Source of the DNA: Ruminococcus sp. | GTDB lineage: Bacteria; Bacillota; Clostridia; Oscillospirales; Ruminococcaceae | Direction of reading: 5' to 3' | Length of the DNA: 6,623 nt | Assembly (NCBI GenBank): GCA_045539715.1 | Contig: JAZQFV010000034.1 | Coordinates: 1 to 6,623 of the forward strand | Shown here: positions 69-5,068 of the stretch, piece by piece | Numbering within the stretch: position 1 is the first letter of the stretch | Layout of the letters: the number at the start of each line of letters is the position of its first letter | Made by a program: the position numbers and the translations under genes | The notes under the pieces: generated by a model | The model's database searches: none | Told to the model about the DNA's origin: nothing | The model's input: the letters and a program-made list of their open reading frames with translations, nothing else

Positions 69-144
69 GGGGGTATAGCTCAGCTGGGAGAGCGCTTGAA
101 TGGCATTCAAGAGGTCAGCGGTTCGATCCCGCTTATCTCCACCA
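69..144 (+). tRNA. tRNA-Ala, anticodon GGC, with encoded CCA end
   Basis: A 76-nt cloverleaf folded by hand. Acceptor stem GGGGGTA/TATCTCC includes the G3:U70 alanine identity pair. D arm is GCTC-AGCTGGGA-GAGC. Anticodon stem CTTGA/TCAAG has loop ATGGCAT (anticodon GGC). T arm is AGCGG-TTCGATC-CCGCT, followed by discriminator A and CCA. Confidence 0.93.
100..144 (+). repeat. attL core (the functional tRNA 3' half)
   Basis: ATGGCATTCAAGAGGTCAGCGGTTCGATCCCGCTTATCTCCACCA is identical (45/45) to 5024..5068. Identity stops exactly at both ends of this segment. Confidence 0.88.
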
Positions 145-187
145 AAAGCCTTGGTTTCTTCGGAAATCAAGGCTTTTTCTTGTTTTT
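145..187 (+). terminator. rho-independent terminator just after the tRNA, supplied by the element
   Basis: Stem AAAGCCTTGGTTTC / GAAATCAAGGCTTT (one G:T wobble) with loop TTCG, followed by TTCTTGTTTTT. Confidence 0.7.
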
Positions 188-240
188 ATAGCTGTTTTTG
201 TGTGATTTAGTTTGCTTTTCTCCAAGAGATAAGTGCTGAC

Positions 241-254
241 CTGTGCGCTTGATT
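241..254. repeat. left-arm copy of a 14-bp inverted repeat; candidate integrase arm-type site
   Basis: CTGTGCGCTTGATT is the exact reverse complement of AATCAAGCGCACAG at 4901..4914. The sub-motif AAATCAAG also occurs at 164..171 and 272..279, and inverted at 248..255. Confidence 0.5.
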
Positions 255-290
255 TTAGACTAAAAAATATGAAATCAAGAGGACAGAATT

Positions 291-1226
291 ATGGCTAAAA
301 TTAGACTTGTAGTGAGCGCAACTATCGAGGAAACCTTTGCCGACTTCATCGTTTCCCGAAAAACCAAAGGACTTGCAGAAAAGACCCTGCAAAGCTATCA
401 ATCACAGTTTCAAGCCGTGGCGCGTCACATTGATGTAAAGATGGACATTGCCACGCTCCAAAAGGCTGATTTGGATAAAATGATTATCAGTATGCGGGGC
501 GCGTCCCTCTCTCCCAATAGTATCAACAGCTACACACGCACTCTCAAATCCTTTTTCTCTTGGTGTAATGAGCAAGGGATCACACGCCTAAATATTCCGC
601 TCTATAAGGCGGAGGAAACTGTAAAAGAAACCTATTCAGATTTAGAACTGTCTGCATTGCTAAAAAAACCCGACATTCGCAAAGCAACCTTTGCAGAATA
701 TCGGGATTGGGTTATTATCAACTTTTTATTGAACTGCGGCAGCCGTGCCGCGACAATTAGAGCTATTCAAATTCGTGATGTGGATTTAGATGCGGGAATG
801 GTGTTCTACCGACACACGAAGAACAGAAAGGCGCAAGTGATTCCCCTTTGTAGTGCCATGGTAGCCATTCTGCGGGAGTATTTACGGCATAGAGGCGGGG
901 AGGCGGCGGATTACCTCTTTTGCACTGAAACAGGCTCACAACTCACGGAAAACGGTTTGCGGCAATCTATTGCAAGGTATAACACGCGGCGCGGCGTACG
1001 AAAGACGAGTATCCATCTGTTTCGACATACATTTGCGCGAAAGTATTTGATTGATTGCGGCGGCGATGCGTTTACTCTCCAAAAGCTATTGGGACACAGC
1101 ACGCTTGCCATGACAAAACATTATTGTGCGATCTTCGATGCTGACTTGACGAAGAATTATGATAATTTCTCGCCGCTTGCACAAATGAAATCCAGTAGAG
1201 AAAAAATCGCCATGCGTGGTAGATAG
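291..1226 (+). CDS. tyrosine recombinase / phage-type integrase (311 aa)
   Basis: Intact ORF with SD-like AGAGGA 7 nt upstream. The N-terminal region resembles a SAM-like core-binding domain. Catalytic signature by eye: GSRAAT (Arg), HLFRHTFA (His-x-x-Arg), LLGHSTLAMTKHY (His and Tyr nucleophile). It sits next to attL. The stop is TAG, followed one codon later by TAA. Confidence 0.9.
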   Translation: MAKIRLVVSATIEETFADFIVSRKTKGLAEKTLQSYQSQFQAVARHIDVKMDIATLQKADLDKMIISMRGASLSPNSINSYTRTLKSFFSWCNEQGITRLNIPLYKAEETVKETYSDLELSALLKKPDIRKATFAEYRDWVIINFLLNCGSRAATIRAIQIRDVDLDAGMVFYRHTKNRKAQVIPLCSAMVAILREYLRHRGGEAADYLFCTETGSQLTENGLRQSIARYNTRRGVRKTSIHLFRHTFARKYLIDCGGDAFTLQKLLGHSTLAMTKHYCAIFDADLTKNYDNFSPLAQMKSSREKIAMRGR

Positions 1227-1249
1227 GAATAACGGGCTTGACGATAATG

Positions 1250-1282
1250 AAGGGGTAACAGCGTCAATCGCTGTTACCCCTT
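1250..1282. terminator. bidirectional stem-loop between the convergent integrase and GIY-YIG genes
   Basis: GGGGTAACAGCG (1252..1263) pairs with CGCTGTTACCCC (1269..1280) around loop TCAAT. TTTCC follows on the plus strand and TTCATTAT on the minus strand. The GIY-YIG stop codon lies in the loop. Confidence 0.6.
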
Positions 1283-1695
1283 TCCAATAGTTCAGATAAT
1301 GTGATTGTATGTGCGGCGGGATTGACGGTAAATTTCCGCCAGTTTGCCGCCGTGGGTATCTAATAGTTGAGCGGCGGGAGATGCTTGCGGATTAGCTCTC
1401 CCTCTTTCTCGCCTATTTCGTTTTCTGTAGTTTGGGCATTAGGTGTGGCGTAGTACATAACCGTAAAGCGTATGGTGTGACCGTGGCGCGTGGCTTCCGC
1501 CAGTATCTTATATTTATGTTCTTTTGGAGCGGCAATCTGTGTGTAATGCTACGCCATGCGCTATAGCATATTGAGGCTCTTGCCTATATAGACGATCTTT
1601 CCGTCCAACAGGATAGCATAAATGCCAGCGTGTTCAAATTGCTGCTCTAACCCTTTGCTTTTCAAAGAATGGTATATCCGTTGCTCAAAATTCAA
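1264..1695 (-). CDS. GIY-YIG nuclease-domain protein, 143 codons, three in-frame TAG codons read as sense
   Basis: TTG start at 1695, 6 nt after AGGAGG (complement of 1702..1707). Translation (X = TAG): MNFEQRIYHSLKSKGLEQQFEHAGIYAILLDGKIVYIGKSLNML-X-RMA-X-HYTQIAAPKEHKYKILAEATRHGHTIRFTVMYYATPNAQTTENEIGEKEGELIRKHLPPLNY-X-IPTAANWRKFTVNPAAHTITLSELLERGNSD. GIY and YIG precede the first TAG. The expected Arg/His, Glu and Asn motifs follow it in frame. TAGs are at 1561..1563, 1549..1551 and 1360..1362; the stop is TGA at 1264..1266. The supplied ORF 1561..1746 is only the N-terminal fragment. Confidence 0.7.
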
Positions 1696-1870
1696 AATAC
1701 CCCTCCTTGATCGGTTTGCATTTAGGGTATTCACAGTTAGCATCATAGTATAGAAACGCCCATAGGTTATACGATGCAGCTAACAGGTTACTATAACTGC
1801 TTGCATTTGTATCTGTAAAAAGCTAACATAAAATGTCATTTATGCAGCTTGTCATTTCATTCTCTGTCAT
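1685..1870 (-). CDS. hypothetical 61-aa protein with one in-frame TAG read as sense
   Basis: ATG at 1870, 5 nt after AAGGAG (complement of 1876..1881), directly after the upstream gene's TGA. Translation: MTENEMTSCINDILC-X-LFTDTNASSYSNLLAASYNLWAFLYYDANCEYPKCKPIKEGYFEF. TAG at 1823..1825; stop TGA at 1685..1687, overlapping the GIY-YIG TTG start by 11 nt. No recognisable motif. Confidence 0.5.
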
Positions 1871-1882
1871 AATTACTCCTTG

Positions 1883-4021: not shown

Positions 4022-4037
4022 CCAAATTTATATGTTC

Positions 4038-4075
4038 AAAGGAGCGGGATTTTACCTGCTCCTTTCTTTGTTGTT
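4038..4075 (+). terminator. rho-independent terminator of the 3114..4021 operon
   Basis: AAAGGAGCGGG (4038..4048) pairs with CCTGCTCCTTT (4055..4065), with one G:T, around loop ATTTTA. CTTTGTTGTT follows. Confidence 0.7.
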
Positions 4076-4204
4076 CGCAAGAGTACACCTTTACAAACAC
4101 CGAAAATCACCCTGTTATTCGTGTTCGTAATACATAAAAATAAATTTACAAACATATTCGTAAAATACTTGATATTTACGAACACTTATGGTAGAATACG
4201 AACA
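4072..4204. promoter_or_regulatory. array of at least 7 copies of a 9-bp motif (consensus TTACGAACA) upstream of the serine recombinase gene; res-like site and/or operator
   Basis: Direct copies: TTACAAACA 4091..4099, TTACAAACA 4146..4154, TTACGAACA 4176..4184, ATACGAACA 4196..4204. Inverted copies: TGTTCGCAA 4072..4080, TGTTCGTAA 4122..4130, TATTCGTAA 4155..4163. Copies 4146..4154 and 4155..4163 abut to form an imperfect 18-bp palindrome. Copies at 4176 and 4196 are 20 bp apart and bracket the -10. Confidence 0.6.
4169..4197 (+). promoter_or_regulatory. promoter of the serine recombinase gene
   Basis: TTGATA (4169..4174), a 17-nt spacer, then TAGAAT (4192..4197) with a TGg extended -10. RBS GGGAGG at 4217..4222 lies 8 nt before the ATG. 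Confidence 0.6.
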
Positions 4205-4230
4205 GATAGAACAACAGGGAGGAAACGCAA

Positions 4231-4839
4231 ATGGATAGCCGCACTTATTACTACGCAAGAGTATCAAGTAAAGAACAGAATTTAGATAGACAGATCGCTG
4301 CTTTCAAGGCTCTTGGAGCAACTGACCGTGAAATCATTACCGACAAGGAGAGCGGCAAAGATTTAGAACGGACAGGGTATCAAGCCCTCAAAAACGCAAT
4401 GCTCCGCCGTGGTGATACGCTGATTGTCAAATCTCTTGATCGCCTCAGCCGAAACAAGACAGACATTCACAACGAACTCCGCTATTTCAAGGAGAACGGC
4501 ATTCGTCTCAAGGTGATTGATCTTCCCACTACCATGATGGACTTGCCTCAAGGTCAAGAATGGGTTTTCGACATGGTAAACAATATCCTAATTGAAGTCT
4601 TGGGAACTATCGCAGAACAGGAACGAGAAACCATCCGAAAGCGGCAGGCGGAGGGCATCGAAGCGGCGAAAGCCAGCGGTAAGAAGTTGGGTAGACCTGC
4701 TTTGACATTCCCCGCCAACTGGGGCGCTGTTTATGCCTCTTGGAAAGCAGGAGAGATTACCGCAAAGACCGCTATGGAAATGACCGACACGAAACGCACA
4801 AGCTTCTATAAACTGGTCGGCATGATGGAAGAGGAGTAA
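4231..4839 (+). CDS. small serine recombinase of the resolvase/invertase family (202 aa)
   Basis: N-terminal catalytic motif YYARVSSKEQNLDRQ (Ser nucleophile), then LIVKSLDRLSR, the E-helix region EQERETIRKRQAEGI, GRP, and a C-terminal HTH-like segment. Stop is TAA. Confidence 0.88.
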   Translation: MDSRTYYYARVSSKEQNLDRQIAAFKALGATDREIITDKESGKDLERTGYQALKNAMLRRGDTLIVKSLDRLSRNKTDIHNELRYFKENGIRLKVIDLPTTMMDLPQGQEWVFDMVNNILIEVLGTIAEQERETIRKRQAEGIEAAKASGKKLGRPALTFPANWGAVYASWKAGEITAKTAMEMTDTKRTSFYKLVGMMEEE

Positions 4840-4847
4840 ACCAAAAA

Positions 4848-4881
4848 TGTCGTGGTGAGGCTTGAAATGCCTCCCACGACA
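4848..4881. terminator. strong stem-loop after the recombinase gene; the run of T is on the minus-strand side
   Basis: TGTCGTGGTGAGGC (4848..4861) pairs with GCCTCCCACGACA (4869..4881), with one bulge, around loop TTGAAAT. ATATATAAT follows on the plus strand and TTTTTGG on the minus strand. Confidence 0.55.
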
Positions 4882-4900
4882 ATATATAATGCAGATAGTC

Positions 4901-4914
4901 AATCAAGCGCACAG
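4901..4914. repeat. right-arm copy of the 14-bp inverted repeat; candidate integrase arm-type site
   Basis: AATCAAGCGCACAG is the exact reverse complement of 241..254. Both copies lie about 100-110 bp from their att core. Confidence 0.5.
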
Positions 4915-5023
4915 ACACAGCGCAAATCACTGTGTTAGCTGTACCACAAGCGAAAAGAGCGTTGAAAACCAAGCGTTTTTGGCGGTGAGCCGCCCTCTAC
5001 ACCTTGACTGCCATCGGCAGTCC

Positions 5024-5068
5024 ATGGCATTCAAGAGGTCAGCGGTTCGATCCCGCTTATCTCCACCA
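5024..5068 (+). repeat. attR core (non-functional duplicate of the tRNA 3' half)
   Basis: Identical (45/45) to 100..144. No matching tRNA 5' half lies upstream. A perfect 7-bp hairpin GACTGCC-ATC-GGCAGTC (5006..5022) abuts it on the element side. Confidence 0.88.

Follow-up and report, generated by a model that had tools for sequence, protein, structure and literature searches.

Integrative elements of gut Clostridia carry a nuclease operon in which TAG is predicted to encode glutamine: a possible natural sensor of recoded phages

Our analysis of a 6,623-nucleotide (nt) stretch of DNA from Ruminococcus sp. (contig JAZQFV010000034.1 of GenBank assembly GCA_045539715.1, here referred to as the window) revealed a 4.9-kb integrative element in which two translational registers appear to coexist. 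Genes for recombination and regulation, on the plus strand, follow the ordinary code, while the minus-strand operon A-B-C-D is predicted to use TAG as a glutamine (Gln) codon. The same division runs through a family of elements in Clostridia, the hosts of which read TAG as a stop. We propose, with a probability of roughly 0.4, that this family is a natural genetic-code sensor: the nuclease encoded by gene D, and often the replication-like genes, would be translatable only with the suppressor tRNA of an invading recoded phage, and this trigger would start either a satellite that parasitizes recoded phages or an abortive or interference defence against them.

Genes A, B, C and D form a tight operon, each preceded by a strong Shine-Dalgarno site (Table 1). 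A first-pass annotation of the window, made from the letters alone, had held that the whole operon requires TAG read-through, and this was borne out: the four genes contain six in-frame TAG codons and no in-frame TAA or TGA, and their own stops are only TAA or TGA. The same annotation had described the five plus-strand genes (integrase, 71-amino-acid [aa] gene, helix-turn-helix [HTH] gene, membrane protein and serine recombinase) as clean under the standard code. Both the open reading frames (ORFs) and the domain matches agreed, as all five are intact under genetic code 11 and devoid of in-frame TAG. It had also noted what follows the two TAG stops of this module, and we found the same: the stop of the integrase gene (1224-1226) is followed by GAA and a back-up TAA at 1230-1232, and that of the membrane-protein gene by a terminator hairpin at 4038-4065. 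When TAG was counted against CAA and CAG, the operon yielded 6 versus 13 and the plus-strand genes 0 versus 29 (Fisher p = 0.0022). The claim that codon usage splits by module therefore held for TAG and for nothing else: GC content and GC content at third codon positions (GC3) are similar in both modules of the window, so that the coding split concerns TAG alone.

Alignments of the operon proteins across the family pointed to the meaning of the codon, because in conserved columns TAG alternates almost exclusively with Gln. Column 10 of B holds Gln in 48 sequences and TAG in 18, while Gln occupies B columns 33, 68, 80 and 107 in 51 to 62 sequences; in D, column 51 is TAG in 20 sequences and Gln in 6, and column 115 is Gln in 24. 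Homologues of B also have Gln at codon 90, the TAG of the window, and the column of the gene C TAG is likewise TAG in 17 of 29 metagenome relatives. Relatives of approximately 98% identity keep the TAGs of the window and have additional ones in place of its GAG or AAG codons, which indicates that TAG is evolving like a sense codon, and new TAGs occur at many different columns of A, B and C. As the terminator of A-D genes themselves, TAG was found in 2 of 129 cases, both with a TAA within three codons. The base that follows an in-frame TAG (position +4) has the same distribution as the base after CAG, and a special read-through context was rejected on this ground. Collectively, these data indicate that TAG is to be read as Gln in A-D.

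To this the pattern of selection can be added. The median ratio of nonsynonymous to synonymous substitution rates (dN/dS) downstream of TAG in TAG-bearing genes was 0.16 for D and 0.17 for B, and upstream of TAG in D it was 0.14. Such values past the TAGs argue that the genes are read through as Gln and are not decaying pseudogenes; the prospect that the operon is dead and decaying, which the first-pass annotation had raised against its own proposal, was thus not borne out.

The annotation's split by module proved to be conserved across a large family, and the boundary between the modules is the same throughout. Searching with B gave 1209 homologues, the closest of which are 98% identical, come from at least 15 short metagenome contigs and have public gene calls that do not translate under code 11. 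Samples containing close relatives of the window include ERZ27303861, SRR36269528, SRR18763202 and SRR5371379. Scanning one genome per species yielded 63 loci, all from Clostridia (among them Oscillospiraceae, Acutalibacteraceae and Lachnospiraceae, with cultured isolates). Their gene order is constant, with serine recombinase, variable cargo, HTH gene and small gene on one side and the divergent genes A, B, C and sometimes D on the other, and a tyrosine integrase beside a tRNA gene completes the element. For the family counts, ORFs were called ignoring TAG and genes were assigned by BLASTP. At 66 loci, of which genome assemblies contributed 63, A-D contained 113 in-frame TAGs and all the other family genes together 1 (Fisher p = 5.5e-39, a value that, like our other p-values, overstates independence because the loci are mutually related).

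A profile of D was used to collect a further 80 loci from metagenomes, independent of the first set. In-frame TAG was present in 66/66 unique D genes, 36/43 unique C genes, 12/28 unique A genes and 4/57 unique B genes of this set, and in 1/16 unique HTH genes. It was absent from the integrases of both sets (65 genes at the 66 loci and 49 unique genes from the metagenomes), from the serine recombinases (40 and 18 unique) and from the relatives of the 71-aa gene (19 and 10).

Each of the 98 unique D genes of the family carries one to four TAGs, and 71 of them carry two to four. If TAG were spread at random among TAG, CAG and CAA, approximately 13 TAG-free D genes would be expected, a figure uncorrected for relatedness; none was observed. 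A single public D call seemed to be TAG-free, and its TAG, at codon 5, had been clipped off by the gene caller. The TAG at codon 49 of D, located between the catalytic Arg and His, is shared by relatives that are only about 50% identical. TAG-free members of the family exist, and all of them lack D. The gene that is always gated is therefore the GIY-YIG nuclease gene D and not the replication-like gene B, which is TAG-free in many members. The first-pass annotation had placed its replication module under the switch; this stands for the nuclease and fails for B as a general rule. As TAG is so strictly retained in the nuclease gene, selection may act to prevent nuclease synthesis in uninfected cells. 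Public gene calls read TAG as Gln on short family contigs and use code 11 on long host contigs; on the latter, D is split or clipped at its N terminus, and the family is consequently hidden in ordinary annotation.

The code of the hosts was examined within 10 kb on either side of each element. Under code 11, ORFs of at least 100 aa cover 0.8 to 0.9 of these flanks, a coverage that does not grow when TAG is read as sense, and 63 of 539 long host ORFs have TAG as their stop. The long TAG-sense ORFs that did appear in the flanks were rejected as low-complexity antisense artefacts in GC-rich DNA. Hosts of TAG-bearing elements end 12.2% of their ORFs in TAG versus 10.6% in hosts of TAG-free elements (p = 0.67), and this equality argues against an efficient constitutive host suppressor. 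The hosts thus read TAG as a stop, and a genome-wide reassignment by the host, which would have left no room for a switch, was not found. TAG-bearing elements were present in 19 of 24 named hosts from Oscillospiraceae, Acutalibacteraceae and Butyricicoccus versus 1 of 10 from Lachnospiraceae (p = 3e-4, uncorrected for phylogeny). Pure-culture isolates with elements include Oscillibacter valericigenes An860, the element of which is TAG-bearing, and Pseudoflavonifractor phocaeensis An901; the latter carries two different family members on two contigs (L033 and L059), both with a TAG-bearing D. TAG-bearing elements also occur in the isolates Pseudoflavonifractor sp. HCP28S3_F10, Hominicoprocola fusiformis CLA-AA-H188 and Oribacterium sp. 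P6A1.

No decoding machinery was detected in the element. ARAGORN and Rfam at E <= 1 found no second tRNA or tRNA-like RNA in the window besides tRNA-Ala(GGC), and a domain search found no release factor among its genes, in agreement with the first-pass annotation. No tRNA(CUA) was found in approximately 190 related loci totalling more than 1.5 Mb.

Since A-D need TAG as Gln, the hosts stop at TAG and no suppressor was found, the decoding of TAG as Gln is probably supplied in trans. The operon, above all its GIY-YIG nuclease gene, would be translated only under efficient suppression of this kind, and the amber codons would act as an AND-gate on top of transcription. The likeliest supplier would be a TAG-recoded (code 15) phage that infects, or is induced in, the same cell; upon arrival of its suppressor tRNA, the replication-like protein and the nuclease would be switched on. 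The element might then multiply alongside the phage in the manner of a satellite. Alternatively, it might act as a defence island or an interfering satellite, cutting DNA and hampering the phage. The presence of a replication-like protein, a nuclease and a region with iteron-like repeats and a (TA)9 tract fits a satellite or a DNA-cutting island. From the sequence evidence, we put the chances that phages supply the suppression of the operon at about even.

The setting for such an encounter has been described. TAG-recoded phages are common in animal and human guts, and among them the Topaz prophages of approximately 22 kb integrate in standard-code Oscillospiraceae and have TAG-free integrases (Borges et al., preprint 10.1101/2021.08.26.457843). 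The authors of that study speculated that recoding could let a prophage sense another phage's suppressor tRNA. They detected a suppressor tRNA in only about 40% of TAG-recoded phage genomes. With some 60% of recoded phages lacking a detectable suppressor tRNA, the step in the first-pass annotation from missing machinery to a helper is weakened, although its proposal of suppression in trans is supported by hosts that stop at TAG and by the absence of a suppressor near the elements.

That figure is the first of several points that weigh against phage-triggered decoding, because a mechanism other than phage tRNAs may exist in these hosts. No recoded prophage adjoins any element within 10 kb on either side, and tblastn of B and D against GenBank phages found no homologues. 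Scans of IMG/VR with B, D, the B alignment and the serine recombinase gave 3 to 4 contigs only and no recoded phage. Pfam and PHROG found no structural, packaging or lysis domains in the nine element genes. An exact search for the attP junction in JGI metagenomes and IMG/VR gave no match, and none of the relative-carrying contigs of approximately 5 kb is circular; for a 5-kb element, absence from such collections, like the rarity of the family in IMG/VR, is uninformative. The relatedness of the loci, mentioned above, belongs here as well. Of the other searches, a megablast comparison of the element with GenBank phages and with PLSDB plasmids returned no match, and no tRNA(CUA) was found on the family-bearing IMG/VR contigs. 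Look-ups of the exact protein sequences of the window's integrase, serine recombinase and 273-aa flank protein yielded no record.

Two of the IMG/VR contigs deserve a description. One (L081, 814-10481) carries a D-bearing element beside a standard-code prophage segment with a lysin, tail proteins and a 1013-aa tape-measure-like protein, an arrangement that may be a tandem integration. The other (L082, 15-600; IMGVR_UViG_3300045988_073130, 96 kb) carries a second, distant B-like gene, with TAG in the same PN#R motif (# denoting TAG), approximately 10 kb from the family element. A 74-aa ORF with three in-frame TAGs adjoins this B-like gene, and the intervening genes are in standard code.

Among the other explanations, conditional suppression by the host survives best, although we consider it unlikely. 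A chromosomal tRNA(CUA), near-cognate tRNA-Gln(CUG) under limiting release factor 1 or stress-induced read-through would decode the TAGs, and the amber codons would be a translational attenuator or a stress switch for the operon, with phages uninvolved. This would account for the lack of a phage link in the phage, IMG/VR and flank searches, for the persistence of elements in the pure cultures An860 and An901 and for the ordinary context at +4, and the many recoded phages without a detectable suppressor tRNA hint at an unrecognised mechanism that could serve here. However, natural read-through of genes with two to four TAGs, as most D genes are, would give virtually no protein, yet these genes are under purifying selection. 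Equal TAG-stop use in both host groups also speaks against it, and as the same device occurs in many host genera, each of them would need the same mechanism.

We regard it as improbable that the element is self-sufficient, i.e., a minimal recoded replicon and not a dependent one. In this case, the decoding would come from a small protein that modifies termination or from a non-canonical suppressor RNA encoded in the intergenic region of 434 nt. The region is kept in all family members, four small proteins of the element have no known function, and recoded phages have been suggested to carry non-canonical suppressor tRNAs that escape detection. Nevertheless, neither ARAGORN nor Rfam reported anything but tRNA-Ala in the window, no relative has a tRNA(CUA), the intergenic repeats resemble iterons with an AT-rich tract and not a structured RNA, and with a suppressor of its own, the element would have no reason to keep TAG out of its integrase and recombinase.

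The evidence presented here largely refutes a third explanation, according to which the operon or the nuclease gene is dead cargo, captured from a TAG-recoded phage, untranslatable and decaying. GIY-YIG genes are common mobile genes in phages, and elements without gene D exist. Against this stand the low dN/dS past the TAGs, the absence of in-frame TAA or TGA and of frameshifts, the conserved catalytic columns of D, the codon-49 TAG kept between distant sequences, the new TAGs emerging in A, B and C and the failure to find phage homologues of B and D. Finally, although some Clostridia encode a pyrrolysine system, reading TAG as pyrrolysine or as a host-reassigned codon is very improbable, because the conserved TAG columns align with Gln and not Lys, the window has no pyl genes, and the host flanks are intact under code 11 with approximately 12% of long ORFs ending in TAG.

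Returning to the genes that phage-supplied suppression would release, the assignment of D is the firmer one. It passes the Pfam GIY-YIG threshold (PF01541; 26.2 bits versus a cut-off of 22.6), and its catalytic columns Y74, Y84, G86, R94, H98, E141/E146 and N158 are invariant in the family alignment. It also has a sub-threshold match to the NCBIfam model of group I intron endonucleases. The gene starts with TTG behind an AAGGAGG site. Public gene calls extend D to 191 aa, which we rejected since the N-terminal addition lacks conservation and runs into gene C, itself conserved. For B, a replication function is suggested by a weak match to PHROG 270, replication initiation protein (E = 1.8e-6), and by sub-threshold RepC matches. 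Its AlphaFold model is of low confidence (mean pLDDT 38), too low for a fold search, with a secondary structure compatible with a winged helix; a profile search against PDB sequences gave no match. The name replication/nuclease operon given in the first-pass annotation is hence sound in its second half and tentative in its first. Gene C is conserved as a protein across the family. B and C end in a conserved carboxy-terminal tail of the form aromatic-x-F-x-F (L012-L079), with the variants MFRF, KFEF and EFIF in B and YFEF, AFDF and EFTF in C, and both proteins may dock onto a common partner.

The layout of the element in the window is summarized in Table 1. The insertion, at the 3′ end of tRNA-Ala(GGC), is bounded by perfect 45-nt direct repeats, and the element rebuilds the 3′ end of the tRNA gene upon insertion. 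Among the plus-strand genes, the cargo gene varies in content among relatives, and the serine recombinase is 83 to 92% identical across the family. The divergent control region, a long non-coding stretch present in all family members, contains iteron-like repeats of the type AAAACAGC at 2823, 2916 and 2936, and in inverted orientation at 2982-2997, together with a (TA)9 tract (3030-3048); judging by these repeats and the AT-rich tract, it may be an origin of replication.

Table 1. Features of the element and its insertion site in the window
Feature	Position	Strand	Remarks
tRNA-Ala(GGC)	69-144	+	ARAGORN; Rfam tRNA model, 61.4 bits; its 3′ 45 nt are attL
attL	100-144		Left copy of the 45-nt direct repeat; 100% identity to 5024-5068
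Terminator hairpin	144-177	+	Brought by the element for the rebuilt tRNA
Tyrosine integrase, 311 aa	291-1226	+	Pfam Phage_integrase, E = 3e-27; in-frame TAG 0
Gene D, GIY-YIG nuclease, 143 aa	1695-1264	-	In-frame TAGs 1561-1563, 1549-1551, 1360-1362; stop TGA
Gene C, 61 aa	1870-1685	-	In-frame TAG 1823-1825; 3′ end overlaps start of D
Gene B, predicted winged-helix DNA-binding protein, replication-initiator-like, 165 aa	2380-1883	-	In-frame TAG 2111-2113 (codon 90)
Gene A, helical protein, 77 aa	2679-2446	-	In-frame TAG 2623-2625; column is Q or D in relatives
Leader hairpin	2725-2708		Between the A-D operon promoter and gene A
Promoter-like site for the A-D operon	2764-2736	-	
Divergent control region, 434 nt	2680-3113		Non-coding
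71-aa gene	3114-3329	+	Stop TGA; in-frame TAG 0
HTH protein, 64 aa	3331-3525	+	Stop TAA; Pfam HTH_38, E = 1.7e-5, just under family threshold
Variable cargo, membrane-type protein, 164 aa	3527-4021	+	C-terminal hydrophobic segment; stop TAG
Small serine recombinase (resolvase/invertase type), 202 aa	4231-4839	+	Stop TAA; Pfam Resolvase, E = 5e-31
attR	5024-5068		Right copy of the 45-nt direct repeat
Pre-insertion terminator of tRNA-Ala(GGC)	5073-5107		

Several further features of the ends and flanks were noted. A perfect 14-nt inverted repeat (241-254 and 4901-4914; CTGTGCGCTTGATT and AATCAAGCGCACAG) lies approximately 100 nt inside each att copy, and its arms may be binding sites for a recombinase or regulator at the element ends. 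A strong promoter-like site, TTGAAA-17-TATAAT at 4862-4890 on the plus strand, faces outward through attR. Once the element is excised and circular, transcription from this site would cross attP toward the integrase gene, so that the site may serve as a promoter of the circular form only. The right flank (5409-6594, minus strand) contains a gene for a 273-aa protein with DUF2442 and HTH_17 and a gene for the C terminus of a HipA-like kinase. This pair matches the PADLOC candidate defence pair PDC-M03B / PDC-M03A (E down to 1.5e-11), so the element adjoins a possible defence locus. Elsewhere in the family, a tRNA-SeC gene lies approximately 2 to 6 kb from D in 10 of the 80 metagenome loci (L110-L113, L120, L128, L129, L132, L150 and L162), and other members are located near tRNA-Ala, Pro, Val, Arg, Lys or a Met-Glu-Val cluster. 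Integrases and target tRNAs have diversified within the family.

The element was also compared with known classes of mobile elements and defence systems. Lacking structural and lysis genes, it fails the defining test for a phage, and since no element gene has a relaxase domain, it is not an integrative mobilisable element. Neither is it a described defence system: in PADLOC, D gave only marginal matches (UzuA, E = 1.3e-3; PDC-S14, E = 3.5e-3) and the other element genes none.

The closest parallel in coding is offered by the temperate code-15 phages of the Garnet and Topaz groups (10.1101/2021.08.26.457843), which integrate in standard-code gut bacteria, including Oscillospiraceae, use in-frame TAG as Gln in one gene block and keep the integrase strictly TAG-free. 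Their close members differ in genetic code, and recoding has been proposed as a switch of their life cycle. In contrast to them, the element measures only 4.9 kb, lacks structural, lysis and packaging genes as well as a tRNA, and its recoded block comprises the four genes of the replication-like and nuclease operon; searches for sequence homology to phages gave no match. A division into standard-code early and TAG-recoded late blocks is also known from the dual-coded crAss-like and Lak phages, but the phages in question are large and lytic, infect Bacteroidota and usually encode a suppressor tRNA, and in some cases a release factor, themselves.

In size and layout, the element resembles phage satellites (PICI, cfPICI, P4-like, PLE and the approximately 6-kb PICMI). 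These are integrated islands of small size, each equipped with an integrase, a regulatory switch and a replication module; in the element, the replication module is putative. Satellites are silent until a helper phage gives a signal that acts in trans, and the same logic is proposed for the element; some of them use a nuclease against the helper, e.g., NixI of PLE. The difference lies in what is sensed, as known satellites respond to helper proteins through repressor or activator interactions and not to the helper's genetic code. Moreover, most satellites encode packaging or capsid-remodelling functions, of which the element has none: Pfam, PHROG and NCBIfam revealed no small terminase or capsid redirection, with cos or pac sites being unrecognisable from sequence. 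D shares the GIY-YIG catalytic core of free-standing homing endonucleases of the I-TevI and Seg type, but it has only 143 aa and lacks a recognisable DNA-binding extension. It occupies neither an intron nor a phage genome, its place being fixed within the conserved operon of an integrative element. Engineered amber-suppression gates for biocontainment or conditional expression likewise interrupt essential or toxic genes with TAG and make them dependent on a suppressor tRNA(CUA). Those gates are synthetic, whereas the element would be a natural, evolutionarily maintained example.

Stop-codon recoding in mobile elements of standard-code hosts is thus known, and what appears to be new is its occurrence in a non-viral integrative family of approximately 5 kb; in full-text searches of the literature, no recoded integrative elements other than phages came to light. 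Recoding in standard-code bacteria has so far been regarded as a property of phages. The family extends the code split to an element that is widespread in gut Clostridia and has no decoding machinery of its own. The chance that the family embodies a new sensing principle is substantial, and with several cultured isolates carrying TAG-bearing elements, the hypothesis is directly testable. If suppressor tRNAs of phages do open the gate, this would be the first natural element or defence that senses an invader through its genetic code. It would then also provide a handle for finding the hosts of recoded phages and constitute a natural counterpart of the engineered amber-suppression gates.

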